The translations under genes and the position numbers were made by a program. The notes below the pieces were generated by a model. The model was not told where the DNA came from. It made no database searches and worked only from the letters and a program-made list of their open reading frames with translations. 64,000 nucleotides of DNA, taken from Gemmatimonadota bacterium. GTDB lineage: Bacteria; Gemmatimonadota; Gemmatimonadetes; Gemmatimonadales; GWC2-71-9. This document shows positions 2 to 64,000 of the stretch, in pieces; the first letter of the stretch is position 1; every line of letters begins with the position of its first letter. The stretch is taken from NCBI GenBank assembly GCA_036679645.1, contig JAZDCY010000015.1, positions 58,504-122,503 on the forward strand, in the 5' to 3' direction.

Positions 2-2197
2 GGTGGGACACGTCTCACCGAGACGGGCATGTCACTAGGGACGCCGCACTACATGAGTCCCGAGCAGGCGATGGGCGAGCGCGAGATCACGGCAAAGAGT
101 GACGTCTACGCTCTTGGATGCGTGCTCTACGAAATGCTCACGGGAGAACCGCCCTTCGCGGGTCCCACGGCCCAAGCAATCATCGCGCGGGTGCTCACCG
201 AACAGCCGCGCTCGCTCACGGTGCAGCGGAGCACGATCCCGCCGCACGTGGACGCGGCCGTGAGTACGGCACTCGCCAAGCTGCCGGCGGATCGGTTCGC
301 GAGTGCGGCGCAATTCGCGGAGGCCCTGGGGGATCCCACGTTCGCCACGGCGGCAGCGGCAGCGACCGCGGCGCGCGCCGAAGCAGCGGAGCCGACGGAC
401 CGCCGACGCAGTCGCCGGTCTGTGCTCACGCTCGGGCTTGCCGCAGTCGCGCTTGCGAGCACGTCCCTCGCCGGGTGGGGTTGGCTGAGCGTACGCAGCG
501 CGTCGCGCCGGCCTACGACGTGGCAGTACACCTCGCTGAGCAACTCGGTCGATCTCATCACGTCGACGCCGTCCCTGGCACTGTCCCCGGATGGCACGCT
601 GCTGTTCCGGGAAGACGGCCAGGAGGGGCGGTTGTGGATCAAGCGGCGTGGCGAGCTGGATGCAACACCCGTTCCCGGAACCGAACGCTCTCAGAACCCG
701 GTGTTCTCTCCAGACGGTGAGTGGATCGCGTTCGTCGCCGACGGCCGCCTGAAGAAGATCCGGACCAGCGGCGGGGCAAGCGTCACGATCGCCGACTCGG
801 TGACCGGCGGATTCGGTGGGGCGGCGTGGCTGGACGACGGCTCGTTGGTGTACGTGGGGAACACCTTGCAGAAGTTGTGGCGTGTGAGCGCTGCCGGTGG
901 CTCGAGTCGGGTGGTCCTGCGTGACGCGTCACTTATCGGTGGTGGGATTGGGATGCCGGTTCCTCTGCCCGACGCGCGGGGCGTGCTGTTTCAGTATTGC
1001 TCGTCCGGCTGTGTCACCATGAGCATCCACGTATTGGATTTGCGCACGGAAACACAAAAGACGCTGCTCGATGACGTCGCGCAGGCGTGGGTGCTTCCAA
1101 ACGGGCGCCTCATGTACGTCCGGCGCGATGGCGTAGCCGTGGCCGCGCCGTTCGATCTCGAAACCCTCGAGATTACGGGAGAAGCCGTGCCGGTGCTCGA
1201 GGACATCGAGGTTCGGGCCTTCAACGGGTTTGCCTTACTCGCGTGGTCCGAATCGGGTTCGTTGATCTACGTGCAGGGATCCGGTAGCACGACGGCCAAC
1301 GTGGCCATCCGCGTGGACCGCGATGGGGAAGTCACCGCCATCGACACCGCATGGTCCGGCGCCTTCAACTCGCTCGACCTCTCGCCGGACGGCCGCCAGT
1401 TGGCGGTGGGCGTAGGCGCCGGCGCGGGGATCAATATCTGGGTAAAACAACTCGATGACGGCCCGTTCACACGACTTACGTTCGGCAACCAGGACCGACG
1501 GCCCGCGTGGTCACCCGACGGACGTCTCGTGGCCTTCGTGCGCGACGATGGCAGCACCAACGCAATCTTTGCCCGCCCCGTAGACGGCAGCGGTCCCGAC
1601 CGGGAGATCGCCCGCATCGATCGACAGGTGCAGGAGGCCGCGTGGTCTCCTGACGGCGAGTGGATCGTTCTGCGCACGGATAACGGGACGGAAGGTGCGG
1701 GGGACCTCGTGGGCGTACGCCTGACCGGTGACTCGGTAGGAGTCCCGTTGGTCGCGAGCCCATTCAGTGAGCTGCACCCAACCATCTCGCCCGATGGGCG
1801 TTGGCTGGCCTACACGTCGAACGAATCCGGTCGGAGCGAGGTGTACGTGCGACCCTTTCCCAACACGAACGACGTACGCTGGCAGATCTCGAACGGGGGA
1901 GGTACACAACCGGTGTGGGCACAGAACGGTCGCGAGCTGTTCTATATCGATCCCGCCGGGATGGTGGTTGCTGCCCGTGTTGAGGTGACGTCCACGTTTA
2001 CCATCGCCGGTCTCACGACGTTGTTCGACGCGTCGGAGTTCGCATTGGATGCCTTCCATCAATCATATGACGTCACTCCGGACGGGAGCGCCTTCGTGTT
2101 CCTCAGTCCACGGCGGTTGGCGGTCGGAGGGCAAGCATTGCGGATCGTCTGGGTGGATCACTGGTTCACGGATCTCGAAGAGCGTCTCGCGCAGTGA
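2..2197 (+). CDS. Ser/Thr protein kinase-TM-TolB/PD40 beta-propeller receptor (5' truncated by window)
   Basis: Frame opens at [21 protein letters not shown] (activation/P+1 loop); hydrophobic TM segment; repeated SPDG/WSPDG blades; C-terminal VWVDHWF motif shared with paralogs. Confidence 0.92.
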
Positions 2198-2243
2198 TCG
2201 GGCGACACCGAGCCGAGATCGGGGGAGGAACCGCGACGATGGC

Positions 2244-2278
2244 TTGTTCTGACACCATGATGGCATTATCATGATGTC
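2244..2278 (+). promoter_or_regulatory. sigma70-like promoter with operator for TA1 (probably leaderless)
   Basis: TTGTTC 2244-2249, 17-bp spacer, TATCAT 2267-2272, ATG at 2279; inverted repeat CATGAT-N6-ATCATG overlaps it. Confidence 0.55.
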
Positions 2279-2530
2279 ATGGTTAGAACTCAGATTCAGC
2301 TGACCGAGAGCCAGCACCGAGCCCTGAAGCATTGGGCCAACCGCCTGGGCATCTCGCTCGCCGAGGCCGTGCGGCGTTGCGTGGCGGAGCGGCTGGAGCG
2401 CGACGATACCTCCCTTGGCCGGGCCGCTCGGGTGCGCGAGGCGGAGGTCGTCATTGGGAAGTACGCTTCCGGCCGTTCGGACGTGGCCACGCATCACGAC
2501 GACTACCTGGCCGACGCGTTCTCCAGTTGA
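2279..2530 (+). CDS. CopG/RHH-family antitoxin (VapB-like)
   Basis: MVRTQIQLTE..ISLAEAVRRCV RHH signature; C-terminal SDVATHHDDYL; overlaps PIN gene start. Confidence 0.85.
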   Translation: MVRTQIQLTESQHRALKHWANRLGISLAEAVRRCVAERLERDDTSLGRAARVREAEVVIGKYASGRSDVATHHDDYLADAFSS

Positions 2531-2928
2531 GCGTCTTCGTCGATACGTCGGCGCTGTATGCGTTGCTGGACCGGGACGATGCTGGCCACGGTCGTATGGC
2601 AGAGGCCTGGGCCAAGTTGCTCTCGGGCCCCCGCCCGCTCATCACCAGCAATTACATACTGCTGGAGACCGCCGCGCTACTCCAGCGTCGGCTAGGCCTC
2701 GGCGCCGTGCATGATCTGGACGACTACCTGATGCCGCTGCTCCGGGTTTGGTGGATCACGGAGTCGACGCATCGTCGCGCCATGCGGCGCCTGCGGCGCC
2801 TGGACCGGCGCGGTGTGAGCCTCGTGGATTGCAGCAGCTTCGAGGTGATGGAAGCTGAGGCGATCCGGGACGCGCTCGCCCTCGACGAAGACTTCGCGGC
2901 GGAGGGATTCCGTCTGCTGCCAGCGTAG
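2527..2928 (+). CDS. vapC: PIN-domain toxin (VapC-like)
   Basis: TTG start overlapping antitoxin stop; VFVDTS, E, SLVDCSSF and LALDEDF acidic PIN motifs. Confidence 0.88.
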   Translation: MSVFVDTSALYALLDRDDAGHGRMAEAWAKLLSGPRPLITSNYILLETAALLQRRLGLGAVHDLDDYLMPLLRVWWITESTHRRAMRRLRRLDRRGVSLVDCSSFEVMEAEAIRDALALDEDFAAEGFRLLPA

Positions 2929-2979
2929 GCGGGGAAGCTCGCGCGAACCCCACATCACTTCGCTGAATGGATTCGTGAT

Positions 2980-3126
2980 ATGAGCGGAATAACGGAACGC
3001 CTCGAGCACGGCCGCAAGGTCGCCCTCAAAGTCTTACGCCCAGAATCGGCCGCAGTCTTGGGCGCCGAGCGCGTGCAAAGGAGAGCTGTGGATCTGCTGC
3101 TCGAGGACCGCGGGGAAGGACGATGA
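2980..3126 (+). pseudogene. Chimeric remnant: deleted kinase N-terminus fused to the C-terminus of a Phd-type antitoxin
   Basis: Translates MSGITERL|EHGRKVALKVLRPESAAVLGAER|..AVDLLLEDRGEGR*; first parts match kinase paralogs, the end matches SAVDLLLEDRSDGR of 23937..24230. Confidence 0.75.
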
Positions 3127-3326
3127 AGTTCTGGGACACTTCGGCGATCCTGCCCCTCTTGGTGGACGAACCGCAGACGAAGGCCATGGTCGGGCTCATG
3201 GGGGACGATCCCGCGGCGGCCGTGGTGTTGGCGGACTTTGAACCCCGAACGTTGCCCCTCGTTACACTGGATGACCGGCTGGCCGCCGCCGCGCGGCGAG
3301 AAGGCTTCGAGGTGCTCGGCACATGA
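3123..3326 (+). pseudogene. Internally deleted PIN toxin (copy of 24227..24652)
   Basis: N- and C-terminal parts nearly identical to the 24227 PIN protein; the middle between two AAAV repeats is missing. Confidence 0.85.
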
Positions 3327-5611
3327 GCGAAATCAGCGAGAAACTGCAGGTTGCGATCGCCGACCGCTACACCATCGAGCGCGAACTCGGCGCCGGTGGC
3401 ATGGCGACGGTCTATCTCGCGGAAGATCTGAAACACAAACGCAAGGTCGCACTCAAGGTCCTGCGGCCCGAACTTGCCGCCGTGCTCGGCGCTGAGCGGT
3501 TCGTGCAGGAGATCACCACCACTGCGGCGCTGCAGCACCCGCACATCCTCCCGCTGTACGACAGCGGGAAGGCGGGAGGGCGGGAAGGCGGGACGGAGTT
3601 TCTCTACTATGTGATGCCGTATGTCGAGGGGGAGACGCTGCGTGACAAACTCGACCGTGAGACGCAGCTCGGCATCGACGAAGCGGTGAAGATCACGGCC
3701 GAGGTGGCCGACGCGCTGTACTACGCGCACCAGCAGGGAGTGATCCACCGGGACATCAAGCCGGAGAACATCTTGCTGCACAATGGTCGACCGATGCTGG
3801 CCGATTTCGGCATCGCGCTGAGTGCCGGGGCGGATCGCAACCGGTTAACCGGGATCGGACTCGTGATCGGCACACCTGCCTACATGAGTCCGGAGCAGGT
3901 GGCCGCCGACCGAAACGTCGATGCGCACACCGATCAGTACGCGCTCGCGTGTGTGGTGTACGAGATGCTCGCCGGCGACCCGCCGTTTGTCGCTTCCAGT
4001 GATCAGGCAGTCATGGCCCGCCACGTGACGGATGCGGCACCGCCAATCGACACGGTGCGACCAGAGGTGAACGCTGCGGTGGTCCGTGCGCTTACGAAAG
4101 CCCTCGCCAAGGCGCCGATTGACCGCCATGAATCAGTGAGTGCATTCTGTGCGGCGCTGACGTCCGACACGTCTCCCGTAGATAGCGGCCCGATGTCCAT
4201 CGCGGTATTGCCCTTCGTCAACATGAGCCCCGATCCGGACCAGGAGTACTTCGCCGATGGCATGGCGGAAGAACTGATCAGCGCGCTGACCAAGGTCCCG
4301 GGCCTCCGCGTCATCGCCCGTATGTCGGCCTTCGTATTCAAGGGAACGAACCAGGACATTGTGACGATCGGCGCACGACTCAGGGTCGCCATGATCGTGG
4401 AGGGCAGTGTTCGAAGACTGGGGGGACGTCTCCGTGTGACAGTGCAGTTGATCGAGGTATCGGGTGGCCACCAGGTATGGTCCGAGCGATACGATCGTGC
4501 GCTCGACGATCTCTTTGAGGTTCAAGACGATATTGCCCGTCGCATCGTGACGAGCATCACGCCGAAACTCATCGACCAAGGGAGTGAAGCGCTGATCGTC
4601 CGTCCGACCAATAGCCAGGACGCGTACGATCTGTATCTGCGTGCCGGTGAGCATCTCGCGCGCCTGAGTTCCGCAGAGACGCGCAAAGCGGTCACGATGC
4701 TCGACAGCGCCACCGCTCTCGATCCCCACTTCGCAGGGGCGTGGGCTCGTTTGTCCGGCGCTTGTTGCTTGATGGACGGTTGGTTCGATCACGGAGTCCA
4801 TTGGCACGACAAGACGGATCAGGCACTAACTCGGGCCCTCGAATTGGATCCTGACAACGCGGAGGCTCGTATGGTGCAGGGTCGCGTCCTGTGGACGCCA
4901 CGTCACGGATTCCGCCACAGAGAGGCGTTGCGCGCCTTGGAGGAATCGCTTCGGTCGCAACCGGGCTCTGCTGCCGCGCGACTATGGCATAGTCTGATCC
5001 TCTTGCATGTTGGCCTCATGACAAATGCGGAGGAGGGCCTCGAGGAATTGCTGGCGACCGAGCCGAACGATGCGACGGTGTTACAGTTCATCGCGCAATG
5101 CATGCTATTCCAGTTCCGCTTCGACGCCGCGCAGGAATATCAGGCGCGGGCCCTGGCTGCGGATCCAGGGCATCATTTCGCGCAGATCTTTCAGCCGACG
5201 GTGCTCCTGTATCAGAACGATCTTGCGGGAGCCGAGTCCGCCCTCGGGGTCGCGCGGCAGTTGCTGAAAGACGATCCGTTGCTTGACGGAAACGAGGCAC
5301 TTCTGTGGGCGAAGCGGGGCGAGAGGGATCATGCCGAGGCGGCAATCGCGCGTGCGACGGACGACCGACCCTCCGTAAGTCACAGCCACCATGCGTGGCA
5401 CTATGCAGCGGCGGCGTACGCCGTACTACACGAGCACAGCAAGGCGATCGCCCTGCTTCGGGACTCGGCCGACGCTGGGCTTCCAAATTATCCTTTATTC
5501 CGCGACGATCCGCATCTGAATGCGCTGCGGACCGATTCGGACATGACCACGCTGCTCGCCGACCTGCAGCGAGAATGGACGGGATATCGTGCGGAATTTG
5601 GCCATGCTTAG
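3323..5611 (+). CDS. Ser/Thr kinase with TolB-like (SIAVLPF) domain and TPR repeats, likely cytoplasmic
   Basis: GAGGMATVY, VALK, HRDIKPEN, DFG, GTPAYMSPE; SIAVLPFVNMSPDPDQEYFADG domain; ALDP-type TPR repeats; no clear TM. Confidence 0.92.
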   Translation: MSEISEKLQVAIADRYTIERELGAGGMATVYLAEDLKHKRKVALKVLRPELAAVLGAERFVQEITTTAALQHPHILPLYDSGKAGGREGGTEFLYYVMPYVEGETLRDKLDRETQLGIDEAVKITAEVADALYYAHQQGVIHRDIKPENILLHNGRPMLADFGIALSAGADRNRLTGIGLVIGTPAYMSPEQVAADRNVDAHTDQYALACVVYEMLAGDPPFVASSDQAVMARHVTDAAPPIDTVRPEVNAAVVRALTKALAKAPIDRHESVSAFCAALTSDTSPVDSGPMSIAVLPFVNMSPDPDQEYFADGMAEELISALTKVPGLRVIARMSAFVFKGTNQDIVTIGARLRVAMIVEGSVRRLGGRLRVTVQLIEVSGGHQVWSERYDRALDDLFEVQDDIARRIVTSITPKLIDQGSEALIVRPTNSQDAYDLYLRAGEHLARLSSAETRKAVTMLDSATALDPHFAGAWARLSGACCLMDGWFDHGVHWHDKTDQALTRALELDPDNAEARMVQGRVLWTPRHGFRHREALRALEESLRSQPGSAAARLWHSLILLHVGLMTNAEEGLEELLATEPNDATVLQFIAQCMLFQFRFDAAQEYQARALAADPGHHFAQIFQPTVLLYQNDLAGAESALGVARQLLKDDPLLDGNEALLWAKRGERDHAEAAIARATDDRPSVSHSHHAWHYAAAAYAVLHEHSKAIALLRDSADAGLPNYPLFRDDPHLNALRTDSDMTTLLADLQREWTGYRAEFGHA

Positions 5612-5638: not shown

Positions 5639-8269
5639 ATGCCTGAAGTTGACGATCGCCTCGCCGCCGCCCTTGCGGGCCGCTACACCATCGAGCGTGA
5701 ACTCGGCGCCGGTGGTATGGCGACGGTCTATCTCGCTGAAGATTTGAAACACAAACGCAAGGTCGCAGTCAAAGTGCTGCGGCCCGAACTCGCCGCGGTG
5801 CTCGGTGCCGAGCGGTTCGTGCAGGAGATCACCACCACAGCGAATCTGCAACACCCCCACATCCTCCCGCTGTTCGATTCGGGCGAAGCGGACTCTTTCC
5901 TTTATTACGTCATGCCGTACGTCGAAGGCGAGACGTTGCGCGACAAACTCAATCGCGAAACGCAACTCGGCATCGATGAAGCGGTGAGGATTGCGACCGA
6001 TGTGGCAGATGCGCTGGACTACGCGCACCGCAACGGAGTGATCCACCGCGACATCAAGCCCGAGAACATCCTGCTGCATGACGGCCGGCCAATGGTTGCC
6101 GACTTCGGCATTGCGCTGGCCGTGAGCGCGGCGGCGGGTGGGCGCATGACGGAAACCGGATTGAGCCTCGGCACTCCGCACTACATGTCGCCCGAGCAGG
6201 CGACCGCGGAGAAGGAGATCTCTGCCCGTTCAGACGTGTACTCGCTGGGCAGCGTGCTGTACGAGATGCTGACGGGGAATCCGCCGCACGTTGGGGCGAC
6301 GGCGCAGCAGATCATCATGAAGATCGTGACCGAAGATGCACAGCCGGTCACGAAGCTCAGGAAGTCAGTGCCGCCGCACGTGGCGGCGGCCGTGGCACAG
6401 TCGCTCGAGAAACTGCCGGCGGATCGGTTGGAGAGCGCGAAGGCCTTGGCCGAGGCGCTTGCCAATCCTGCATTCACCTCCGCGAGCACGGTGACGAGTG
6501 GAACGACGTCTGCCGTACCGACGTTCCGGCGTTCCGCCGTTTCGCTGACGCTCGCCGCCACGACGGTGTTTGCAGTCGCGCTCGCAGCCTGGGGCTGGTT
6601 GCGCTCGTCTCCGCAAGCGCCGCTGGGTCGGTTCAATATCGCGCTCGCCGAAGATCAGGCTGTGCAACCAGGGCGGGGGCCGCGCATCGCGGTCTCGCCG
6701 GATGGTTTGCGCTTCGTGTACGTGGGGCCGGGCGAAGGGGGTGGACAGCTCTGGGTGCGCGAACGCGACCAGCTTGCTGCGCGGCAGTTGGCGGGCACCG
6801 AAGGGGCCATCAGCCCGTTCTTCTCGCCGGACGGACGGCGCGTGGGCTTCTTCACCATCGCGCCGATGCGCCTCAAGACCGTCTCACTCGGCGGTGAACC
6901 ACCCGTGACGGTGGCGGACTCGGGTATCGACTGGGACGGCGGCGCTTGGGGGGCCGACGGGTACATCTACTCGGACAGCCCCAACGGTCTCGTCCGCGTT
7001 TCACAAGGCGGCGGCCGCGTCGAGCGCGTGACCCAACTCGACACTGTCCGGGGGGAGCAGAACCACAACTACCCCGCGATGCTCCCCAACGGGAAGGGTG
7101 CGTTGTTCATCGTCTTTCGCGGGGGCGTCCCCGACTACGAGGTCGCGGCAGTGGACCTCCGCACGGGACTCCATCACGTCCTAACCAAGGGTGTCTACGC
7201 CCGCTACGCCGCGCCGGGTTATCTCGTGTACGTCACGGCGACGGGGACCCTGATGGCGGTGGCGTTTGACGAGAGCAGCCTTCAGCTCACCGGCGAGGCC
7301 ACGGCATTGGCGGAAGGAATCAGCGTTCGCGGGTTTGGCTACGTCGACCTGGGACTCTCGCTCACCGGGACGCTGCTCTATTCGGGCGGCGACGCGAGTG
7401 CCGCCGTGACCGACCTGGTCTGGGTGAGCCGAAGCGGTGAGGTGCAGGTGATCGATTCCAGCGCGTACGACTCGCCGGTGATTTCACCAGACGGAAGCCG
7501 GGTCGCTGTCGCCGTGAGCACGCTGGGCGAACAGCAGATCTGGATTCGCCTCATGCCCGATGGACCGTCTTCCAAGTTGACGTTTGATGGCAGTGATAGT
7601 GGGCGGCCGTTCTTCTCGCCCGATGGCCGCATGGTCGGGTTCTACACGAGCCAGACGCGAACCCGGAGCCTGTTTGCCGCCCCGCCGGATACGCTGCTCG
7701 TCATCCCACGGGCCGTGTGGGAGGGGACATGGTCGCGGGACGGGCGGTGGCTCGTGTACCGGGAGAACAGCACGCCTGAGGCGAACCTGATGGCGGTGCG
7801 CACGGACGGAGATACGACACCCGTGACACTCGTAGCGACCGTGTTCAACGAGCGCTCACCGACGCTGTCGCCCGATGGGCAGTGGCTTGCGTACGCATCG
7901 GACGAATCCGGCATCACCGAGATCTACGTTCGTCCCTTCCCGGAGACGGCGCGGGCGAAGCGGCAGGTGTCGTTGCACGGCGGCACCGAGCCCCTGTGGT
8001 CCCACAGCGGGCGGGAGTTGTTCTACCGCAATCCGACCGGGGACATGGTGGCGGCCGCGATCACCACTCAGCCGGCCTTTGCGGTCGGGCGCCAGACGGT
8101 GCTGTTTGCTGGTTCGGACTACGCCGTGGACGACTCCCATCGGCAGTATGACGTCTCGCCCGATGACCGTCGCTTCCTCATGATTCGGGAACGAGGTGGC
8201 GGCGAGCGCGCGAATCTGATTCTGGTGGACAACTGGTTCCAGGAACTCATCGCCAAGGTGGGGCGGTGA
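5639..8269 (+). CDS. Ser/Thr kinase-TM-TolB/PD40 beta-propeller receptor
   Basis: Complete kinase motifs, TM (LTLAATTVFAVALAAWGW), SPDG blades, LVDNWFQEL C-terminus. Confidence 0.93.
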   Translation: MPEVDDRLAAALAGRYTIERELGAGGMATVYLAEDLKHKRKVAVKVLRPELAAVLGAERFVQEITTTANLQHPHILPLFDSGEADSFLYYVMPYVEGETLRDKLNRETQLGIDEAVRIATDVADALDYAHRNGVIHRDIKPENILLHDGRPMVADFGIALAVSAAAGGRMTETGLSLGTPHYMSPEQATAEKEISARSDVYSLGSVLYEMLTGNPPHVGATAQQIIMKIVTEDAQPVTKLRKSVPPHVAAAVAQSLEKLPADRLESAKALAEALANPAFTSASTVTSGTTSAVPTFRRSAVSLTLAATTVFAVALAAWGWLRSSPQAPLGRFNIALAEDQAVQPGRGPRIAVSPDGLRFVYVGPGEGGGQLWVRERDQLAARQLAGTEGAISPFFSPDGRRVGFFTIAPMRLKTVSLGGEPPVTVADSGIDWDGGAWGADGYIYSDSPNGLVRVSQGGGRVERVTQLDTVRGEQNHNYPAMLPNGKGALFIVFRGGVPDYEVAAVDLRTGLHHVLTKGVYARYAAPGYLVYVTATGTLMAVAFDESSLQLTGEATALAEGISVRGFGYVDLGLSLTGTLLYSGGDASAAVTDLVWVSRSGEVQVIDSSAYDSPVISPDGSRVAVAVSTLGEQQIWIRLMPDGPSSKLTFDGSDSGRPFFSPDGRMVGFYTSQTRTRSLFAAPPDTLLVIPRAVWEGTWSRDGRWLVYRENSTPEANLMAVRTDGDTTPVTLVATVFNERSPTLSPDGQWLAYASDESGITEIYVRPFPETARAKRQVSLHGGTEPLWSHSGRELFYRNPTGDMVAAAITTQPAFAVGRQTVLFAGSDYAVDDSHRQYDVSPDDRRFLMIRERGGGERANLILVDNWFQELIAKVGR

Positions 8270-8359
8270 CCGAAGTCGCTGTACGTCTCTCCGCCGCCCT
8301 GGCAGATCGCTACCGCATCGAGCGCGAACTATGCGTTGATTCGGAAGCTGAAGCTTCCG
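8266..8359 (+). pseudogene. Kinase 5' stub terminated by REP-like hairpin
   Basis: GTG overlapping upstream stop; encodes (M)TEVAVRLSAALADRYRIEREL, then GATTCGGAAGC-TGAA-GCTTCCG. Confidence 0.8.
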
Positions 8360-8388
8360 GTCGGCGCAGCACCGCCAAGCGTTCGTGA

Positions 8389-54505: not shown

Positions 54506-57454
54506 ATGAGCGAGATCACGGAGCGTCTTTCCACCGCGATAGCCGACCGCTACAAGATCGAGCGCGAACTCGGTCAGGGCGGCATGGCGACCGTGTATTT
54601 GGCGCACGACGTGAAGCACGACCGCAAGGTCGCTGTCAAGGTGTTGCGACCGGACCTGGCGGCGTCACTTGGGTCAGAACGGTTCCTGCGTGAAGTGCGC
54701 ATCGCGGCAAACCTTCAGCATCCGCATGTGCTGCCGCTCTACGACTCCGGCGAGGCCGACGGCTTCCTGTTCTACGTGATGCCCTACGTCGAGGGCGAGT
54801 CACTCCGGGCCAAGCTCGAGCGCGAGGGTGAGTTGCCCGTAGCGGACGCCGTGCGAATTCTCAAAGAAGTGGTGGATGCCCTCGCGTACGCGCACGAGCA
54901 CGGCGTAGTTCATCGCGATATCAAGCCTGACAACGTGATGCTGTCCGGACGTCACGCGCTCGTCACGGACTTCGGCATCGCAAAGGCCGTGAGCGAGGCG
55001 ACGGGAAGGCAGGAATTGACCACCGCTGGCGTGGCCCTCGGGACACCGGCCTACATGGCTCCCGAGCAGGCGGCGGCCGATCCCCATGTCGACCACCGCG
55101 CCGACATCTACGCGGTGGGCGCGCTGGGCTACGAGTTGCTCACCGGGCGCCCGCCGTTCGTCGGCTCAACGCCGCAGCAAGTGCTCTCCGCTCACGTGAT
55201 GACCGTGCCCGATCCCGTCACGGCCCATCGAGCAGCGGTGCCGGTGGCGCTGGCCGACGTGGTGATGCGTTGTCTCGAGAAGAAACCGGCCGACCGGTGG
55301 CAAAGCGCCGACGCCGTTCTGTCGGCTCTTGAGTCCGGGGCCACTCCGAGTCTGGGGATCACGCCGACCGATACGCGGCCCATCTCGGCGGTCGGTGTGC
55401 GCTTCGACCAGCGGAAAGTGCTCGTGCCCGCTGTCGGGCTGGTGCTCGCCATCGGCGCGATCGGGGTTGTCGGAGTGGTCCTGCGAGATCGCGCACCGGA
55501 CGTTCCCGTTCCCGAGGTGTCCTCGTCGATAGTCGCCGTCTTTCCCTTCGCGGTGCGGGGCGGGGACACGTTCCAGTACTTGGGCGAAGGCATGGTCAAC
55601 CTCCTGAGCACGAGCCTCAACGGTGCCGGCGCACTCAGGACAGTGGATCCGAGGGCTCTCCTCGGGCGCGTCTCCCGTAGTGGCGGACGCCCAAGCGACC
55701 CCCGCGAGGCCGCGGACATCGCGCGCGAGTTCGGTGCCGGCCTCTACGTGCTCGGCGACATCCTGGATGTCGGTGGAACGTTGCGTATCGACGGTGCGCT
55801 CTACAGCCTCGAGCGCGGGACTGAGGCGGTCGCGCAGGGGACGGCGCAAGGCGCAGCCGCGAGCATCTCGGAGCTGATCGACGAGCTCGCGGCGCAGCTC
55901 ATCACCGGCCAACGGCTTGGGCCCGGTGGGCGCCTGACACGATTGGCTTCGGTGACGACAGCGTCCTTGGATGCGCTCAAGGCGTATCTCGAGGGCGAGA
56001 TCGACTTCCGGCAGGGGCGAGACAACCGCGGCGTGGAGGGCTTCCAACGCGCCGTTGCGTTGGACAGTACGTTCGCGCTCGCGTATTACCGCATGAGCGT
56101 CGCGGCCGCCTGGGCGGGGCGGGCCGACCTGGCGACGTCGGCGGTCCAAAGCGCCCAGCGTTACCGCAACCGGCTCAGCGAGCGGGATGCACGACTGGTT
56201 GACGCGTTGCAGGCCTTCTTGAGAGGGAATGCGACGGCAGCTGAGGGTCTCTACTTGGCATCTGTGAGCACATATCCCGATGACGTCGAAGCGTGGTACA
56301 TGCTGGGCGAAACGAGACGCCATTTCGCCCCACTTCACGGGGGCTCGATTCTCGATTCCCGAGACCCTTTCGAACAGGTTCTCCGATACGAGCCGGAACA
56401 CGTCAGCTCGCTCTTCCACCTCGCAGAGGTAGCGGCCAAGGAAGGCGCTCGCGAGGAGCTGGACTCACTGGTTGGTCGTTTTCTCGAGCTATTTCCCAGC
56501 GCGGGCGTGGGGACCAACATGCGCATCATGGGTGCCTTCTCCCTCGGCGATGAGGAGCTTCGGTCGCAGTTGCTGGCGCGTTTCGCTGATTCTGCGCTTA
56601 GCGAGACTCCGATACGCGAAGTGGCGTCCTACTTGAGGAATCCCAAGGGAGGCTTGGCGCTCGCCCGACTCAACGCAGCTTCTACCAAGCCGCAGGCGTT
56701 GCGGATCCGCAGCGCACGAGATCTGGCCAACCTGTACCTCGGTCGAGGCCAGTGGGAGCGGGCACTCGACGCGCTGGCGGAGATTCGGACTCTGGCGTCG
56801 GACTCGCAGCTCGTGTACGCTGCGTGGCTTTCGCTCTTTCCGCTGTTGAGCACGTCGGAACGAGTGCTCGACAGCCTGTGGGCCGCATTGAGGGGCGTAG
56901 GTTCGCTGCCCGGGGTGCAATACGTCCGTGGGCTGTTGAGTGTTCGACGCGGAGACCGCGTTGCCGCGTTGCAGATTGCGGAACGGCTCGAACGGATCGG
57001 GTCGGACTCGTTTCAAGGTCGGCTGGCCGGCGATTTCAGCCTGATCATCCAGGCAGAAGTGGCGCGCCATGCGGGTGATGCCGCCCGTGCGCTCGCGCTG
57101 CTCGAGCAAACGATCGTGGAAGTCCCGTACGGTTCCGGGGGCGCCATCGGCTTCGCGACCCAACCGTATCATCGCTACAGCCGAGCGGGACTATTGGCCG
57201 AGGCCGGTCGTGCGACCGAGGCACTCCGTTGGTATGCGTCGATCGGTGACATCTCGTTGGAGGAATTCCCGTACATCGCACCCTCGCACATCCGGCGGGC
57301 CGAGATCTTCGAGCAGCAGGGAGAACGAGAGAAAGCCGTTGAGGAATACGCGGCGTTCCTCCATCTGTGGCAGGATGCAGATCCACAGTTCGAGCAGCTC
57401 GTGATTGACGTGCGCGAGCGGGTAGCGCGGCTACAGGCTGGGGGGCGACGATAG
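54506..57454 (+). CDS. Ser/Thr kinase-TM-TolB-like/TPR receptor
   Basis: HRDIKPDN, DFG, GTPAYMAPE; TM; VAVFPF domain; ALDSTFALAYY TPRs; W.DADP C-terminus. Confidence 0.9.
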   Translation: MSEITERLSTAIADRYKIERELGQGGMATVYLAHDVKHDRKVAVKVLRPDLAASLGSERFLREVRIAANLQHPHVLPLYDSGEADGFLFYVMPYVEGESLRAKLEREGELPVADAVRILKEVVDALAYAHEHGVVHRDIKPDNVMLSGRHALVTDFGIAKAVSEATGRQELTTAGVALGTPAYMAPEQAAADPHVDHRADIYAVGALGYELLTGRPPFVGSTPQQVLSAHVMTVPDPVTAHRAAVPVALADVVMRCLEKKPADRWQSADAVLSALESGATPSLGITPTDTRPISAVGVRFDQRKVLVPAVGLVLAIGAIGVVGVVLRDRAPDVPVPEVSSSIVAVFPFAVRGGDTFQYLGEGMVNLLSTSLNGAGALRTVDPRALLGRVSRSGGRPSDPREAADIAREFGAGLYVLGDILDVGGTLRIDGALYSLERGTEAVAQGTAQGAAASISELIDELAAQLITGQRLGPGGRLTRLASVTTASLDALKAYLEGEIDFRQGRDNRGVEGFQRAVALDSTFALAYYRMSVAAAWAGRADLATSAVQSAQRYRNRLSERDARLVDALQAFLRGNATAAEGLYLASVSTYPDDVEAWYMLGETRRHFAPLHGGSILDSRDPFEQVLRYEPEHVSSLFHLAEVAAKEGAREELDSLVGRFLELFPSAGVGTNMRIMGAFSLGDEELRSQLLARFADSALSETPIREVASYLRNPKGGLALARLNAASTKPQALRIRSARDLANLYLGRGQWERALDALAEIRTLASDSQLVYAAWLSLFPLLSTSERVLDSLWAALRGVGSLPGVQYVRGLLSVRRGDRVAALQIAERLERIGSDSFQGRLAGDFSLIIQAEVARHAGDAARALALLEQTIVEVPYGSGGAIGFATQPYHRYSRAGLLAEAGRATEALRWYASIGDISLEEFPYIAPSHIRRAEIFEQQGEREKAVEEYAAFLHLWQDADPQFEQLVIDVRERVARLQAGGRR

Positions 57455-57510
57455 GTGGGTGTGTTGACGGTGCAATCTGCATTCTGCAGTTCACTGAACG
57501 TTCTCGTGAC

Positions 57511-60148
57511 ATGAGCGAGTTAACCCAGCGTCTTTCCACCGCGATTGCCGACCGCTACAAGATCGAGCGTGAGGTCGGTGCGGGCGGCATGGCAACCGTC
57601 TACCTGGCGCAGGACGTCAAACACGACCGCCACGTCGCACTCAAGGTGTTGCGTCCCGAGCTGGCCGCCGTGATCGGTGCCGACCGATTCTTGCAGGAGA
57701 TCAAGGTCACCGCCAACCTGCAGCATCCCAACATCCTTGCACTGTATGACTCCGGTGAAGCGGACTCGTTCCTCTACTACGTGATGCCGTACATCGAGGG
57801 CGAGTCGCTGCGTGACACGCTGGATCGCGAAAAGCATTTGGCAGTCGATGACGCGGTCGAAATTGCGCGTGGCGTGGCGTCAGCGCTCGACTACGCGCAT
57901 CGGCACGACGTGATTCACCGCGACATCAAGCCCGAGAACATTCTGTTGCACGATGGGCGGCCGGTCGTGGCTGATTTTGGCATTGCGCTCGCCGTCTCCA
58001 CGGCCGGCGGTCATCGCCTGACCGAGACGGGGCTCTCGCTCGGCACACCGCACTACATGAGTCCCGAGCAGTCGATGGGTGACCGTGAGATCGATGCGCG
58101 GTCCGACATCTACTCGCTCGGCGCGATGTTGTACGAGATGCTCGCTGGCGAGCCGCCGTTCACGGGACCGACAGCGCAAGCGATCGTCGCCAAGGTCATC
58201 ACCGAGAAACCGGCCATGGTCACCATGGCGCGCGACACGGTCCCGCGCCACGTCGCGCTCACCATCTACCGTGCGTTGGCCAAGCTGCCGGCGGATCGGT
58301 GGCCCTCCGTTGCCGCATGGCGAGACGTTGGCTGGCGTCCCGGCGGCGGCGGGTCGCCCGGGATGGCGTGCGTGGGTGACCGATCCACGGTCAGTGGCGC
58401 TTGTAATCGTGATGATTGGAGCGCTAGTGCTGGGGGTGCAGCGCCGATCGGACTCAGCCGCCGGTGCCGAGCCGATCAGCGCGAGCTTCACGGTAGCGTT
58501 ACCGGCGGGTGAACGGTTCGTGACGGAACCACCGGCCGTTTCTCCCGATGGGCGGATACTGGTCTACGTGGTGCGAGATACCGCCGGACAGCGACTCCGC
58601 GTGCAGTCGCTCGATGCGTTCGGCTCACGCATCATCGATGGTACCGAGGGTGCGAGGCGCCCGTTCTTTTCGGGAGACGGCGCCCGCATCGGGTTCTGGG
58701 TCGGGGGCAGCCAGGTTGCTGTCGTTCCGATCGCGGGAGGTCGGCCGCAGATCATCGGCACGTTACCGGTATGGGGGGATCAACCGCTCTGGGCCGCGGA
58801 CGGGCGCATCCTCGTGGGTCAGATGGGATCGGGAATCTGGGCGCTCAAGGAAGGCGGGGGCGACGCGGAGCAGGTGACATTTCTGGATACAGCTGGCGGG
58901 GAGCGCGGGCACCTCTATCCTCGTGCGCTCCCGGGTGGACGTCTCTTGTTCAGCGTCGTGACCGACTCGGGGTTCGGACTGGCGACGCAGGCGGCCGACG
59001 CGGCATCGCACGAGCGGCTCTCTCTGGCGTTGGAAGGCCCGGCCGAGTATGTGAAGCCTGGCGTGCTGGTATTTCGTGCAGCCGGCCGCGTACATGCGGT
59101 GGCCTTCGATCCGCATGCCGCTCGCGTCCGCGGAACGCCCGTGCCAATCGACGACGCTATCGCACCACGGTACCCAGACAGTTGGCGACGTGCTCCGGCG
59201 GTAGGAGGCGGCACGGCGGCATACATCGAGGTCCTGGAGGTCGCTGATCGTCGGCTGATGTGGGTCGACCGCGCGGGCGGGCGCACTCCCATTGAGGGAA
59301 TTCGAGGTGACTTGCGCTGGCCGCGGCTGTCGCCCGGCGGCGACCGGGTGGCCGTCGGAGGCATTGACGGTACGCTGGATGAGGAGGACATCTGGGTGAT
59401 CGACCTGGCCAGCGGTACCCGCGTCCGCCTGCTGGCCCCCGGTCTGTTCCACACAGAACCTGTTTGGACCCGGGACGGCACGCGGGTGACGTACTCCTAT
59501 GAAGCGACTCCTTTCCCGTCGTTGGGATGGCAACCCGCTGACGGGAGCGGCCAATCCGAGCGAGTGCATGCTGCACCGTTCGAAGCCTGGGCCACCGACT
59601 GGTCACCCGACGGGTCCGAACTGCTTTTCTACGGCACGGGCGGCGTACCGGCTGTCGATGATATGTTCGTGGTCGATCTCGACGGGAACCGGCGCGCGAC
59701 CGTTGGCGGGGCGGGCGATCAGCGTGGCGGCCGGTTCTCTCCCGACGGTCGGTGGATTGCCTACCAGTCGAGCGAGACGGGTCATTACGAGGTGTACGTG
59801 CAGCCGTACCCATCGCTCGATCGGAAGTGGGCGGTGTCCGTAGGTGGGGGGACGGAGCCCGTTTGGGCGCCGAATGGACGCGATCTGTTCTTCCGAAATG
59901 GAGATCGTTTGATGGTCGTCTCCGTCAGCGCGGATTCGACATTCGCTGCGGGTACTCCCACGGAGTTGTTTCGTGGCGTGACGTTCAACGACCCCGCCGG
60001 CGATCAGAGTTATGACGTGAGTCCCGATGGCCGGCGTTTCCTGATGATCGATCCGGGTCCGGAGTCGGCGGTCGAGCTGCGAGTGATCGTCAATTGGGGT
60101 GAGCGGCTCGCGGCGTTCCTTCGTGAGCGACAAGCGGGTCGAGACTAG
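57511..60148 (+). pseudogene. Ser/Thr kinase-TM-beta-propeller gene split by one frameshift (or sequence error)
   Basis: Kinase ORF 57511..58512 runs to ADRWPSVAA; TM+propeller continue in ORF 58079..60148 from GETLAG; shift near 58316. Confidence 0.82.
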
Positions 60149-60169
60149 ATGAACGAGATCACCGGCGTT

Positions 60170-60351
60170 CCCGCGCTAAAGCACGGGCTCGGCGCTGCGC
60201 GGCGCGTCCTGAAGGACGCGAGGGCGGAGAGCCCTTCAGGGCCCACCGCGGCCCGCAGGGCCGCGCCGAGCCGGGGCTTCAGCCCCGGAACCGCGCACGG
60301 AGGCGAATGGCGGCGCGTCAGCCCCGGAACACCGCGCAAAGGCAGATGCCA
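60170..60351. repeat. REP-like multi-hairpin element, copy 1
   Basis: Hairpins CCCGCGC-TAAA-GCACGGG, GCGTCC-TGAA-GGACGC, GCCC-TTCA-GGGC, CCGGGGC-TTCA-GCCCCGG; near-identical to 63048..63229. Confidence 0.85.
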
Positions 60352-63006
60352 ATGAACGAGATAACGGGCCGCGTCAAAGCCGCCATTGCCGATCGCTATC
60401 GCATCGAGCGGGAAATCGGTGAGGGCGGTATGGCAACCGTCTACCTGGCGCACGATGTGAAGCACGATCGCAAGGTCGCGCTCAAGGTCCTGCGTCCCGA
60501 ACTGGCCGCCGTGATCGGCGCCGAACGCTTCCTACAGGAGATCAAGGTCACTGCCAATCTCCAGCATCCCCACATTCTCCCGCTCCACGACTCCGGCCAG
60601 ATCGACACGTTCCTCTACTACGTGATGCCCTACGTGGAAGGGGACACGCTGCGCGACAAGCTCGATCGCGAGAAGCAACTGGGCATAGACGACGCGATCG
60701 AGATCACGCGGAACGTCGCCTCGGCGCTCGACTACGCGCATCGGCAGAACGTGATCCACCGCGACATCAAGCCCGAGAACATCCTGTTGCACGATGGGCA
60801 GGCGTTGATTGCGGACTTCGGCATTGCGCTGGCGGTGAGTGAGGCTAGCGGCAATCGGCTGACGGAGACGGGGCTATCGCTTGGCACGCCGCACTACATG
60901 AGTCCCGAGCAGGCAATGGGCGATCGCGAGCTGGATGCGCGCAGTGACATCTACAGCCTCGGCGCCATGCTGTATGAGATGTTGGCGGGCGATCCACCGT
61001 ATCAGGGGAGTACGGCGCAGGCGATCGTGGCGAAGGTGATCACGGAGAAGGCGCCGCCGGTCACGGCGATACGCGATACAGTCCCCTCACATGTAGCGGC
61101 CGCGATTCAAAAGGCGTTGAGCAAGTTGCCGGCGGATCGGTTCCCTTCGGCGGCGGCCTTTGCGGAGGCGCTCGTGACACCGGGCGCCGTGCCGCTCACC
61201 CCAACTGTGGAAGCGGGTGCGGCAGTGCCCGCGCGCCGGCGTGACTGGCGCGCGATCGCGCTCGCCACGGCCCTCGTCCTGATGACCGGGCTTGCCGCTT
61301 GGGCAACGTGGCGGCCTCGGCCACCGCAACCCGTGTCGCGCTACAGTGTGCTCCTGCCCGCAGATCAGCGCATCGGTGGGTTCTTCGCGCGCATCGCGAT
61401 CACGCCAGACGGATCGCGATTGGTCTATAGCTCCGGTTCGGGACAACAGACGCAGCTATGGGTGCGGGAGCGCGACGATTTGGAAGCGACGCCGCTCGCA
61501 GGGACGAATGGCGCGTTCGCACCGTTTGTCTCTCCCGATGGAAGCCGGGTCGGGTTCTTTGCGGGTGGAGCGCTGAAGGCGGTGTCGCTGCGTGGTGGCC
61601 CGCCGATCACACTCGCCGACACCCTTGTCGGCGGCGGCGGGGCCACGTGGAGTCCCGATGGTTTCGTGTACGCCGAAGCAGCCGGCCCCAACCCGCTCGT
61701 GCGGGTCTTGGCATCGGCAGGTACGCCGGAGTGGTTTACGCGTATCGACTCGGCAAACGGTGAAATAAATCACATGTTTCCCGTCGCGTTGCCAAACGGC
61801 AAGGGTGTCCTCTTCCGAGTTGGACGCGGGAGCACGGCCCGGGAGTCGGATATCGCGGTCGCGGAGACGTCCACCGGCACCCACCGGATCCTCGTACGTG
61901 GAGTGTACGCGGTGTACGCCCGGTCCGGCCACCTGGTGTACGTCACGGCGGACGGGACGCTCCTGGCCGCACCATTCGATCAGGATGCCATGGAGCTGAC
62001 CAGTGAACCGACGGCGCTCGTGAGTAACGTGGGACTTCGCGTTCTCAGCCAACCAGACCTCGCCATCGCAGACGATGGGACCCTCGTGTACACCAGTGGC
62101 GGCGGCGGGGGCGTTGGTGGGGAACCCGTCTGGGTCGACCGTGACGGTGGTGCCGAGGCGGTGGCGCCTTCCTGGACCAGCTCGGCGGGTGCGCTCGCGC
62201 TGTCACCTACGGGGACACAGCTGGCCGTTGCGATCCTCGGAGATGGCGAGTCGAGCATCTGGGTGCGGCAGCTCAGCCGGGGCACGGTATCAAAGCTGAC
62301 CTTCGAATCCAACAATATCCGCCCCGTGTGGACACCTGACGGCCGCGACATCGTCTTCAGCTCCGACCGCCGTGGACAACTCGACCTCTACGTTCGTCGG
62401 GCCGATGGCACCGCACAGACGGAACTGCTGCTGGATCGACCACGTGTCGCCCAGGAATCGCGTCTGACGCGCGACGGTGCCTGGCTCGTTTACCGCGAAG
62501 GTGGGGGGCCGGACAGCGATCTCTTTGCGCGTCGCACCAGCGGTGATACCACTCCGGTGCCCCTTGCGGTGACCGAGTTCCAGGAGACGACTCCCAGCGT
62601 ATCGCCGGACGGACGCTGGTTGGCGTACGCCTCGGATGAAACCGGCCAGTCCGAGGTCTACGTGCGACCGTTTCCGGATGTGACGAGCGGAAAGTGGCTC
62701 GTATCGTCCGAGGGCGGGTCGGAGCCACTGTGGTCCCGTGACGGCCGGGAGCTGTTTTATCGGAACGCCAACAACGACATGGTCGCGGTCGAGGTTTCTC
62801 CCGAGAGGGCACCTCCGACCGGCCAGCAGCGCGTGCTGTTCTCCGCTAGCTCGTATGTGGCGGATGTCTTTCACCAGATGTACGACGTCACACCGGACGG
62901 CGAGCGGTTCGTCATGCTGCGCGTCGGCGGCGAACAGGCAGATGATTTGCAGCTCATCGTGGTGGAGAATTTCTTCGAGGTGCTGAAGAGTAAGGTGGGG
63001 TGGTGA
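60352..63006 (+). CDS. Ser/Thr kinase-TM-TolB/PD40 beta-propeller receptor
   Basis: Complete kinase motifs, TM, SPDG blades, VVENFFEVL. Confidence 0.93.
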   Translation: MNEITGRVKAAIADRYRIEREIGEGGMATVYLAHDVKHDRKVALKVLRPELAAVIGAERFLQEIKVTANLQHPHILPLHDSGQIDTFLYYVMPYVEGDTLRDKLDREKQLGIDDAIEITRNVASALDYAHRQNVIHRDIKPENILLHDGQALIADFGIALAVSEASGNRLTETGLSLGTPHYMSPEQAMGDRELDARSDIYSLGAMLYEMLAGDPPYQGSTAQAIVAKVITEKAPPVTAIRDTVPSHVAAAIQKALSKLPADRFPSAAAFAEALVTPGAVPLTPTVEAGAAVPARRRDWRAIALATALVLMTGLAAWATWRPRPPQPVSRYSVLLPADQRIGGFFARIAITPDGSRLVYSSGSGQQTQLWVRERDDLEATPLAGTNGAFAPFVSPDGSRVGFFAGGALKAVSLRGGPPITLADTLVGGGGATWSPDGFVYAEAAGPNPLVRVLASAGTPEWFTRIDSANGEINHMFPVALPNGKGVLFRVGRGSTARESDIAVAETSTGTHRILVRGVYAVYARSGHLVYVTADGTLLAAPFDQDAMELTSEPTALVSNVGLRVLSQPDLAIADDGTLVYTSGGGGGVGGEPVWVDRDGGAEAVAPSWTSSAGALALSPTGTQLAVAILGDGESSIWVRQLSRGTVSKLTFESNNIRPVWTPDGRDIVFSSDRRGQLDLYVRRADGTAQTELLLDRPRVAQESRLTRDGAWLVYREGGGPDSDLFARRTSGDTTPVPLAVTEFQETTPSVSPDGRWLAYASDETGQSEVYVRPFPDVTSGKWLVSSEGGSEPLWSRDGRELFYRNANNDMVAVEVSPERAPPTGQQRVLFSASSYVADVFHQMYDVTPDGERFVMLRVGGEQADDLQLIVVENFFEVLKSKVGW

Positions 63007-63047
63007 CCCGCGCGCGGAGGGAATGCTCGAGCGGAACCGGCGTTGTT

Positions 63048-63229
63048 CCCGCGCTGAAGCGCGGGCTCGGCGCTGTGCGGCGCGTCCTGAAGGACGCGTG
63101 GGCGGAGAGCCCTTCAGGGCCCACCGCGGCCCGCAGGGCCGCGCCGAGCCGGGGCTTCAGCCCCGGAACGGGGCGCGGGGGCCAACGCCGCGTCCTCAGC
63201 CCCGGAACACCGCGCAAAGGCAGATGCCA
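63048..63229. repeat. REP-like multi-hairpin element, copy 2
   Basis: Same 182-bp distance to the next kinase ATG and same hairpins as the 60170 copy. Confidence 0.85.
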
Positions 63230-64000
63230 ATGAACGAGATAACGGGCCGCGTCAAAGCCGCCATTGCCGACCGATACAAAATCGAGCGGGAAATCGGTGA
63301 GGGCGGCATGGCCACCGTCTACCTGGCGCACGACGTCAAACACGACCGCAAGGTCGCGCTCAAGGTCCTGCGTCCCGAACTCGCCGCCGTGATCGGCGCC
63401 GAGCGATTCCTGCAAGAGATCAAGGTCACCGCCAATCTCCAGCATCCGCATATTCTCCCACTCCACGACTCCGGTCAGATCGACACGTTCCTCTACTACG
63501 TGATGCCGTACGTGGAGGGGGACACGCTGCGCGACAAGCTCAAACGGGAAAAACAACTGGGCGTGGACGATGCGATCGAGATCACGCGGAACGTAGCCTC
63601 GGCGCTCGACTACGCGCACCGGCAGAACGTGATTCACCGGGACATCAAGCCGGAGAACATCCTGCTGCACGATGGGCAGGCGTTGATTGCGGACTTCGGC
63701 ATCGCGCTGGCGGTCAGTGAGGCGAGCGGGAATAGACTGACGGAGACGGGGCTCTCGATTGGTACGCCGCACTACATGAGTCCCGAGCAGGCAATGGGCG
63801 ATCGGGAGCTGGACGCGCGCAGCGACATCTATTCGCTAGGTGCAATGCTGTACGAGATGTTGGCGGGCGATCCGCCGTATCAGGGTAGTACGGCGCAGGC
63901 GATCGTGGCAAAGGTGATCACGGAGAAGGCGCCACCGGTGACGGCCGTGCGCGATACGGTCCCCTCGCACGTCGCTGCGGCAATTCAAAAGGCGTTGAGC
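63230..64000 (+). CDS. Ser/Thr kinase (3' truncated by window)
   Basis: [41 protein letters not shown]; near-identical to the 60352 kinase domain; absent from the ORF track because it has no stop in the window. Confidence 0.92.
   Translation, partial: MNEITGRVKAAIADRYKIEREIGEGGMATVYLAHDVKHDRKVALKVLRPELAAVIGAERFLQEIKVTANLQHPHILPLHDSGQIDTFLYYVMPYVEGDTLRDKLKREKQLGVDDAIEITRNVASALDYAHRQNVIHRDIKPENILLHDGQALIADFGIALAVSEASGNRLTETGLSIGTPHYMSPEQAMGDRELDARSDIYSLGAMLYEMLAGDPPYQGSTAQAIVAKVITEKAPPVTAVRDTVPSHVAAAIQKALS

Follow-up and report, generated by a model that had tools for sequence, protein, structure and literature searches.

We analysed a 64-kb window (positions 58504-122503 of contig C8) in the genome of a Gemmatimonadota bacterium (G000; 4.05 Mb, 93% complete), more than half of which is taken up by Hanks-type kinase genes interspersed with toxin-antitoxin (TA) pairs. 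Genes were called from an open reading frame (ORF) listing, its translations and Pfam scans; recurrent comparisons are with two congeners (G001 and G002), a genome of another family (G015) and one of another genus (G270). The window carries 14 such kinase genes, all on the plus strand, nine of them in 2-27440 (block 1) and five in 51805-64000 (block 2), with 24.4 kb between the blocks; together they occupy 35 of the 64 kb. Block 1 comprises 13 genes and starts 11.6 kb upstream of the window. The window ends where the contig ends, and a unique 111-nt exact overlap with the start of contig C68 implies that block 2 continues to seven genes. The first-pass annotation of this DNA, which described 14 co-oriented kinase genes in two blocks passing both window ends, is borne out by these arrays of 13 and 7 genes. 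Twelve of the 14 encode a kinase, a transmembrane (TM) segment and a PD40 propeller, and two (3323 and 54506) are TPR-tailed. The genome as a whole has 99 kinase matches, compared with 14-60 in 20 relatives. The features, named below by their first nucleotide, are as follows.

2-2197, plus strand: kinase-TM-PD40, fifth gene of block 1, starting 496 nt upstream of the window; 75% orthologue in G001, at the block-2 site
2279-2928, plus strand: TA pair 1, RHH antitoxin (2279-2530) and VapC (2527-2928)
2960-3326, plus strand: collapsed unit of leader and kinase head (codons 1-59, internally deleted), Phd tail and internally deleted vapC, paralogous to 21150-24652
3323-5611, plus strand: kinase-TPR without TM peak, predicted cytoplasmic
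5639-8269, plus strand: kinase-TM-PD40; propeller orthologue (74%) in G002
8267-8390, plus strand: head stub (codons 1-22) whose start overlaps the upstream stop, joined to one REP-like palindrome arm
8423-9088, plus strand: TA pair 2, Phd (8423-8707) and VapC (8711-9088), flanked by 72-nt direct repeats (head and REP arm, 81% identical)
9085-9250, plus strand: decayed head stub and full REP-like hairpin element
9255-11917, plus strand: kinase-TM-PD40 pseudogene, frameshifts near 9300 and near 10810
11914-12040, plus strand: head stub (codons 1-23) and REP arm
12100-12788, plus strand: TA pair 3, Phd-like antitoxin (below the Pfam cut-off) and VapC (12372-12788), flanked by head repeats (73 nt, 81%)
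12781-15492, plus strand: kinase-TM-PD40
15631-18336, plus strand: kinase-TM-PD40 mosaic, 21174-like to nt ~137 and 12781-like beyond
18418-21066, plus strand: kinase-TM-PD40 (27-nt gap at 19167)
21174-23807, plus strand: kinase-TM-PD40, structure modelled
23937-24652, plus strand: TA pair 4, Phd and VapC
24786-27440, plus strand: kinase-TM-PD40 mosaic with 18418-type leader and head, kinase body 98% identical to 21174, propeller 38-40%
27612-28315, plus strand: TA pair 5, RHH and VapC, with a kinase-leader-like stretch upstream (27444-27546)
30960-31654, plus strand: TA pair 6, RHH and VapC (VapC 88% to pair 5), 3.8 kb outside the array
47986-50907, minus strand: unrelated kinase-TM-PEGA-PPC gene
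51009-51723, plus strand: TA pair 7, RHH and VapC, at the head of block 2
51805-54462, plus strand: kinase-TM-PD40, first of the seven genes of block 2
54506-57454, plus strand: kinase-TM-TPR
57511-60148, plus strand: kinase-TM-PD40, frameshift near 58320
60149-60330, plus strand: six-codon head stub and REP-like element whose homologues flank a Y1 transposase gene on contig C50
60352-63006, plus strand: kinase-TM-PD40
63043-63172, plus strand: REP-like element in a leader
63230-64000, plus strand: kinase cut by the contig end; its PD40 propeller is on C68
15547, 18339, 21068 and 24686 (strand not given): heptamer-repeat hairpins in leaders
42428, 43584, 44680, 45859 and 47913: heptamer-repeat hairpins away from kinases

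Two of the kinase genes are frameshifted, 9255 with two breaks and 57511 with one. The breaks of 9255 fall within zero-difference contigs of run X1. We rejected an assembly artefact as the source of stubs and block-1 frameshifts for 6307-9443 and 9923-12838, both covered by zero-difference X1 contigs; stub 60149 and the break in 57511 lie outside this check, and X1 is possibly the source sample and not independent. At position 19167, the sole covering X1 contig is 27 letters longer, which makes an assembly error the probable cause of the 9 codons missing from kinase 18418. The fifteenth kinase gene of the window, the PEGA/PPC type at 47986-50907, is on the minus strand.

All six catalytic motifs (Gly loop, VAxK, HRD, DFG, GTxxYMxPEQ and DxYS) are present in the 11 intact plus-strand kinases of the window, and the Pkinase Pfam match is over its cut-off. 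Every intact gene checked but 3323 has a single hydropathy TM peak at residues about 290-325. In AlphaFold2 models of 21174 (pLDDT 90.5 and 94.9) a PknB-like kinase is followed by a helix at 302-320 and an all-beta ectodomain. The top Foldseek matches of the kinase part are to PknB, at about 40% identity; the ectodomain, of about 550 residues and PD40/TolB-related, best matches tandem double-propeller proteins, TolB and tricorn at a low TM-score (about 0.33), and in sequence it matches TolB proteins of the PDB and a single uncharacterised entry. Four kinases scanned against the Stk1/PASTA equivalog NF033483 scored 273-319 bits for a cut-off of 450 and have no PASTA domain. The family is common, with over 4000 homologues (4120 hits among 8000 scored candidates), the named ones mostly from Gemmatimonadota.

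With an N-terminal kinase, one TM helix and an extracytoplasmic propeller, these proteins resemble PknB and PknD; they differ in their double-propeller-like ectodomain, in their number (at least 34 intact paralogues per genome) and in their tandem arrangement. PknD of M. tuberculosis has an extracellular six-bladed propeller sensor (PMC6213207). Hydropathy and this analogy suggest that the kinase is cytoplasmic and the propeller periplasmic; the latter would then be a ligand sensor, and ligand binding may activate the kinase by dimerisation as in PknB and PknD.

The two halves of these receptors have different histories. Among the 96 kinase hits of the genome, 34 are intact propeller-type genes, and their 561 pairwise comparisons give identities of 61-98% (median 73) for the kinase and 18-78% (median 34) for the propeller; the two measures correlate at 0.12. 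For the nine intact propeller-type genes of the window (36 pairs) the ranges are 67-98% (median 73) and 26-46% (median 34); the strong divergence of the propellers noted in the first-pass annotation is real, while its description of the kinase domains as nearly interchangeable was overstated. Separate trees of kinase and propeller have 1 of 31 splits in common, a raw figure that overstates the conflict because both trees are weakly resolved, and we therefore ran a cross-validation with FastTree. On held-out kinase columns the kinase tree reached lnL -2574 and -2647, the propeller tree -3175 and -3087, and label-shuffled trees means of -3384 and -3264. A domain's own tree is thus much better, and the other domain's tree only a little better than shuffled ones, so the incongruence proposed for the two trees holds under cross-validation as well.

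Individual genes show where the exchange occurs. Gene 24786 resembles 18418 up to nt 135 (40 against 5 informative sites) and 21174 from there on (33 against 151), and 15631 switches parent at the same place. Maximum-chi-square analysis of triplets picked after inspection puts breakpoints at nt 135-139 (in two genes), 276-288 and 511-517, each with p<=0.0005 in 2000 shuffles. Identical runs of at least 30 nt fall within codons 1-250 in 116 of the 117 pairs having one. Exchange therefore spans the kinase-coding 5' third, and one crossover, near codon 46, recurs; that the kinase 5' region is the recombination platform had been predicted from the first reading of the DNA. Synonymous divergence follows the same division: 21174 and 24786 share 98% of kinase residues at dS 0.44 and 40% of propeller residues at dS about 1.6, near saturation. 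The reverse case is the last gene, whose propeller has dS 0.27 to its G001 orthologue and whose kinase 0.96, a comparison that rests on the C8-C68 join. A database homologue of 21174 is 88% identical in the propeller and 67-92% in the kinase, depending on the 40-residue bin. By identities, dS, breakpoints and cross-validated trees, core and variable part are evolutionarily decoupled; the homogenised and mosaic part is the kinase half, and a large number of sensors probably signal through two or three kinase types in common.

The propellers themselves were thought to be hypervariable, and here the comparison with congeners points the other way. We compared nine propeller-type genes from selected G001 and G002 loci, a subset of their kinases, with G000: four have orthologues at 74-89% (88, 74, 89 and 74%), two match at 60-62%, and three have no clear counterpart, for a background identity with a median of 71% (65 genes). 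The dN/dS of orthologous propellers is 0.14-0.26, and in six cross-species pairs from G001 and G002 the whole-domain value is 0.14-0.29; neither dN/dS above 1 nor accelerated ectodomain divergence was found at the whole-domain level in these pairs. Hypervariability is rejected at that level: the types are old and under purifying selection. The propellers are ancient paralogue types that have been re-attached to different kinases, and the kinase-propeller contrast stems from the homogenisation of the kinase half.

Gene number turns over quickly around this old sensor set. At the orthologous sites, located by the anchor genes pntB and DUF1028, G001 has no kinases after a TSUP-like gene where G000 has 13, and at the block-2 site four kinases and a stub where G000 has seven. 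Two of these four are block-2 orthologues in the same order, one is a block-1 orthologue and the fourth has its best match (62%) elsewhere. The G002 counterpart contains a kinase fragment along with two PIN-like genes and different accessory genes. There is thus no one-to-one synteny among these relatives, in agreement with the turnover that had been anticipated.

Between the intact genes lie short 5' remnants of the kinase family, five of them in the window (2982, 8267, 9085, 11914 and 60149) and 29 in the genome, 27 derived from a head model (one long gene with an internal deletion was dropped) and two found by eye. The remnants are strongly polar. In successive windows from the 5' end, DNA matches outside genes number 23, 10, 5 and 1, then 0-2 over the kinase core and 2-4 at the kinase end (several at contig edges); at the protein level the orphan fragments number 22, 12 and 5, then 0-2. 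No orphan tail was found at E<=0.05 in a search that gave 30-37 in-gene hits, nor with a DNA model that gave 29 in-gene hits, no headless kinase body was found in G000, and the head model had no match in the reversed genome. Displaced tips of the Rhs type are rejected by the absence of orphan tails. Stubs end at codons 22-30 in 15 of 29 cases, over a range of codons 6-146, and the 29 breakpoints share no site. Another head follows within 1.7 kb in 15 and is absent from that distance in 14; by hand count, about 14 have a TA-type gene as near neighbour and 22 are followed by a gene on the same strand (no background was computed for the latter). Short frames (<120 residues) account for 11 of 50 head matches in G001, 1 of 21 in G002 and 1 of 18 in G015, and for none of the matches of a mid-kinase probe (0 of 51, 0 of 35 and 0 of 28); some of these short frames may be frameshifts or contig ends. 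Functional peptides are an unlikely explanation of the stubs, several of which are frameshifted or substituted, and promoter reuse is a weak general cause, as three of them (8267, 9085 and 11914) lack a leader and begin on the stop codon of the gene before.

Deletion demonstrably makes some stubs. In the collapsed unit at 2960-3326 a kinase, an antitoxin and a toxin have all been deleted down, with a ~12-nt imperfect repeat at the vapC deletion, and G001 has an in-frame fusion of a kinase head to a kinase tail. With no tails found and head repeats of 72-73 nt flanking TA pairs 2 and 3, there is room, beside deletion, for integration through the head. Cargo on circles or fragments bearing a 60-90-nt head could cross into any head without an integrase and give the order stub, cargo, intact kinase, with addiction blocking re-excision and ratcheting TA pairs in; we consider this origin, the chief alternative to the reading proposed below, rather unlikely. 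It would account for the 81%-identical direct repeats at pairs 2 and 3, for the next head within 1.7 kb and the stub ends at codons 22-30 (each in about half of the stubs), and for the lack of headless bodies and tails. It would also fit a G270 locus ordered kinase, PIN, head fragment, PIN, stub, ParE-type pair, stub, nucleotidyltransferase, kinase, in which head fragments split four TA-type modules between two kinases, and there is a precedent in the circular intermediates proposed for rhs by Jackson et al. 2009 (PMC2935791). Weighing against such cassettes are the other half of the stubs, with no head close downstream, the scattered breakpoints and the clear deletion scars, and neither a circle nor an empty allele was seen. 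An extension of the idea, in which the first 60-90 nt of the kinase family form a genome-wide, cross-species landing pad where TA pairs and other cargo enter any of ~75 heads by homology and are locked by addiction while the same homology swaps sensors between kinase outputs, is a tentative proposal that we hold to be improbable; if true, integron-like, stub-punctuated cassette arrays would be built without an integrase.

TA pairs accumulate at these junctions. The window has seven VapBC pairs, each with the antitoxin gene directly upstream of a PIN toxin over the Pfam cut-off (acidic active-site residues were identified by eye in the translations), and one internally deleted remnant at 3123. 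Six of the seven have a kinase or stub no farther than 700 nt away; for the pair at 30960 the distance is 3.8 kb. The first-pass annotation placed VapBC pairs, kinase stubs and palindromic repeats at the gene junctions: the pairs are there and the stubs are real, while the palindromes belong to genome-wide families found away from kinases too. TA density is 109/Mb in the window and 4.8/Mb outside it, and the same limit of 700 nt to a kinase or stub takes in 11 of 26 PIN genes, compared with 92 of 1336 small genes; without contig C8 the figures are 5 of 19 against 79 of 1305 (p=0.005), so the enrichment that had been proposed as a check extends beyond this contig. Phd-PemK, HigB, ParE and AbiEii-like genes also occur at kinase heads elsewhere in G000, and at C7:211763-212294 (L003:1763-2291) a 48-codon kinase head continues in frame into a Phd antitoxin, with a short PemK/MazF toxin behind it.

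The TA-kinase link depends on lineage. Of the 14 PIN genes in five near-complete relatives, three, all from G015, clearly sit beside kinases or stubs; G014 has one PIN gene about 1.5 kb from a kinase or stub, and G013, G017 and G020 have none near a kinase. Across the class, 5 of 29 and 3 of 29 loci of top VapC homologues have a kinase, stub or propeller within 1.5 kb (DUF1028 controls: 0 of 30). For ParE it is 6 of 30 loci, one being G000's own and the other five propeller-only, from one genus, and weak in the two inspected. That most VapC homologues of the class sit away from kinases also counts against the cassette origin. Pair 4 follows a different propeller in G231, and run X2, which belongs to another study, has a 1451-nt contig (of identical length and depth in both retrievals) on which pairs 4 and 3 are about 106 nt apart; in the window 11 kb separate them. 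Their adjacency in a related strain would favour cassettes, although joints of this kind are short-sided and unreliable. A TA pair of G015 (L020:11070-11714) is 73-81% identical to one of G000 (C4:110828-111475), at a kinase junction in both, while a single marker gene of these genomes from different families is 54% identical; horizontal co-transfer is possible, and the case would favour the cassette origin. A foreign composition of the TA genes was rejected (GC 63-70%, kinases 64-67%).

Taken in its strong form, the idea of the first-pass annotation amounts to a repertoire for immunity or conflict that generates diversity through rapidly evolving propellers and has TA pairs as dedicated guards of the kinases or as their downstream effectors. 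The large lineage-specific expansion, the rapid turnover and the TA density of the window speak for it, as does pseudogene 9255, which persists between pairs 2 and 3, both of which follow stubs, as expected if TA pairs limit large deletions. Such a limit is possible, and TA cassettes restrain excision in chromosomal integrons (PMC13108822). The pairs do not keep adjacent kinases intact, however: kinases are deleted or frameshifted right beside TA pairs, and one TA pair has itself collapsed. No evidence for an effector role was found: most VapC homologues in the class are away from kinases, the seven VapCs are mutually 25-43% identical except for one 88% pair, and no TA type is fixed to one kinase type. 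Together with the purifying selection on the propellers and the three near-complete relatives that have 11-26 kinases and no PIN gene near any of them, this makes the strong form very improbable.

The palindromes form two dispersed genome-wide families that move along with leaders during exchange. Family 1 consists of hairpin clusters with a CTGAAG-type loop (109 hairpins in 20 clusters), homologous to the flanks of Y1_Tnp genes (72-74% over 122 nt). Family 2 is made of heptamer-repeat hairpins, 67 in the genome and 10 near heads, which flank unrelated window genes too. Nine of the 20 clusters have a kinase head no more than 300 nt away, a zone that makes up 1.5% of the genome, and several stubs join exactly at a hairpin boundary. 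On contig C53 (L013:1190-1780) a Y1 transposase gene lies between inverted hairpin repeats directly upstream of a kinase, and the same repeat follows two stubs on C4. A RAYT-like Y1 transposase cutting near leader hairpins and joining DNA there would produce head-only stubs and move cargo; TnpA(REP) of E. coli cleaves at a distance from REPs and performs strand transfer in vitro, according to Ton-Hoang et al. 2012 (PMC3333891), which also describes intergenic hairpin doublets homologous to Y1 gene flanks (REP/BIME), as found here. The elements of G000 differ in their low copy number, and the one Y1 gene scanned (of four) scores 28.3 for NF047646 (REP_Tyr_transpos, cut-off 80) and 58.6 for NF033573 (IS200-type, cut-off 55). 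Moreover, about two-thirds of the stubs have no adjoining hairpin, and since hairpins sit in leaders, any deletion ending at the next unit abuts one. We regard transposase-directed rearrangement as highly unlikely.

An integron was likewise rejected. A simple pattern scan for attC-like RYYYAAC...GTTRRRY pairs gave none on either strand of the window (65/Mb genome-wide), and none of the nine Phage_integrase matches of the genome is on C8 or C68, beside the arrays. Two of the nine are broken or fragmentary genes (C86:51976-52782 and C33:1461-2195), which we take to be integron-integrase-like (IntI-like) from a motif, on contigs without a kinase hit.

We now propose that the locus is a birth-and-death receptor array shaped by homologous recombination and deletion, with TA pairs as selfish passengers that outlast the kinases, a reading to which we give a probability of roughly two in three. 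Homologous recombination in the conserved kinase-coding 5' third, together with microhomology deletions, would yield mosaics, gain and loss of units, stubs and an accumulation of TA pairs. The mobile unit would comprise a kinase body, its propeller, anything behind it and the leader and head of the next gene, so that TA pairs at junctions would travel as passengers. As their loss is costly, TA pairs would tend to survive deletion of an adjacent kinase and leave scars of stub plus TA pair. Only short heads would persist, probably as longer translated fragments are selected against and heads are recombinogenic with about 75 loci. Most likely, no dedicated diversity-generating machine is needed for such arrays.

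Several observations weigh against this proposal. Random deletion alone fails to predict 22-29 heads with no tails and about no internal fragments; given this head-only polarity, the steps on TA survival and short heads need selection or a biased mechanism. Halves of one and the same domain agree on just 3-6 of 31 splits (5-6 where odd and even columns are compared), a clear orthologue (74% or more) exists for only four of the nine congener propeller genes, and whole-domain dN/dS can mask positive selection at a small number of sites. Three of the five near-complete relatives show no TA-kinase adjacency.

The 24.4 kb between the blocks hold other genes. Pairs 5 (27612-28315) and 6 (30960-31654), whose toxins are 88% identical, bracket a cytochrome c-PQQ dehydrogenase gene, which has no match at E<=1e-100 in 20 relatives, and another gene, presumably yajQ-like. 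A 15-G run (31906-31920) precedes an ORF without Pfam match (31956-32726). An accessory module of a DUF4876-like lipoprotein, a TonB-dependent receptor and a DUF6850 barrel (33954-39779, plus strand) has a thiol-disulfide oxidoreductase-like gene (33140-33724, minus strand) upstream of it. Three tandem DUF3179-type genes (41309-42406, 42529-43557 and 43690-44654, plus strand) each have an in-frame TGA at U-x-x-C; read as selenocysteine it gives full proteins in two, and the third has a later frameshift. SelA is present in G000, so that these are probable selenoproteins, and DUF3179 is among the known families of such proteins. A GMC oxidoreductase gene (45925-47910, minus strand) has heptamer hairpins on both sides, and its G001 orthologue differs in position and orientation relative to its neighbours, which suggests a repeat-bounded relocation.

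Clusters of plant receptor-like kinases, to which the arrays had been likened, likewise consist of single-pass receptor kinases in tandem that evolve by birth and death and whose paralogues exchange sequence. The present arrays are bacterial and show no whole-domain positive selection, and their TA passengers and head stubs have no plant counterpart. The likeness to polymorphic-toxin loci does not extend to membership, as there is no toxin tip, immunity gene or orphan C-terminal cassette: in the search for Rhs/CDI toxins and immunity genes, C-termini in the window were PD40 or TPR and neighbours kinases or VapBC pairs. In rhs, as described by Jackson et al. 2009 (PMC2935791) and Kirchberger et al. 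2017 (PMC5361080), a conserved core is decoupled from a variable tip. Both systems diversify through recombined parts rather than fast mutation, with frequent gain and loss; here, however, the variable part is a predicted sensor, and the leftovers are 5' heads instead of displaced 3' tips. Sedentary chromosomal integrons share the co-oriented array, the TA punctuation and the changes of order between strains, as portrayed by Richard et al. 2024 (PMC13108822), whereas our arrays have kinase heads with variable breakpoints as junctions, and no attC-like box pair in the window or adjacent integrase. No published description of such arrays was found in the literature searched, which consisted mostly of papers outside subscription.

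Genomes of the Gemmatimonadota type devote a large share of their DNA to these kinases. The repertoire turns over by moving old sensor types and re-attaching them to a few homogenised kinase types, so that signalling receptors follow the logic of rhs. Present in a second genus too, the chains of TA pairs and the stubs that are all heads offer a concrete test of whether homology and addiction can build cassette arrays.

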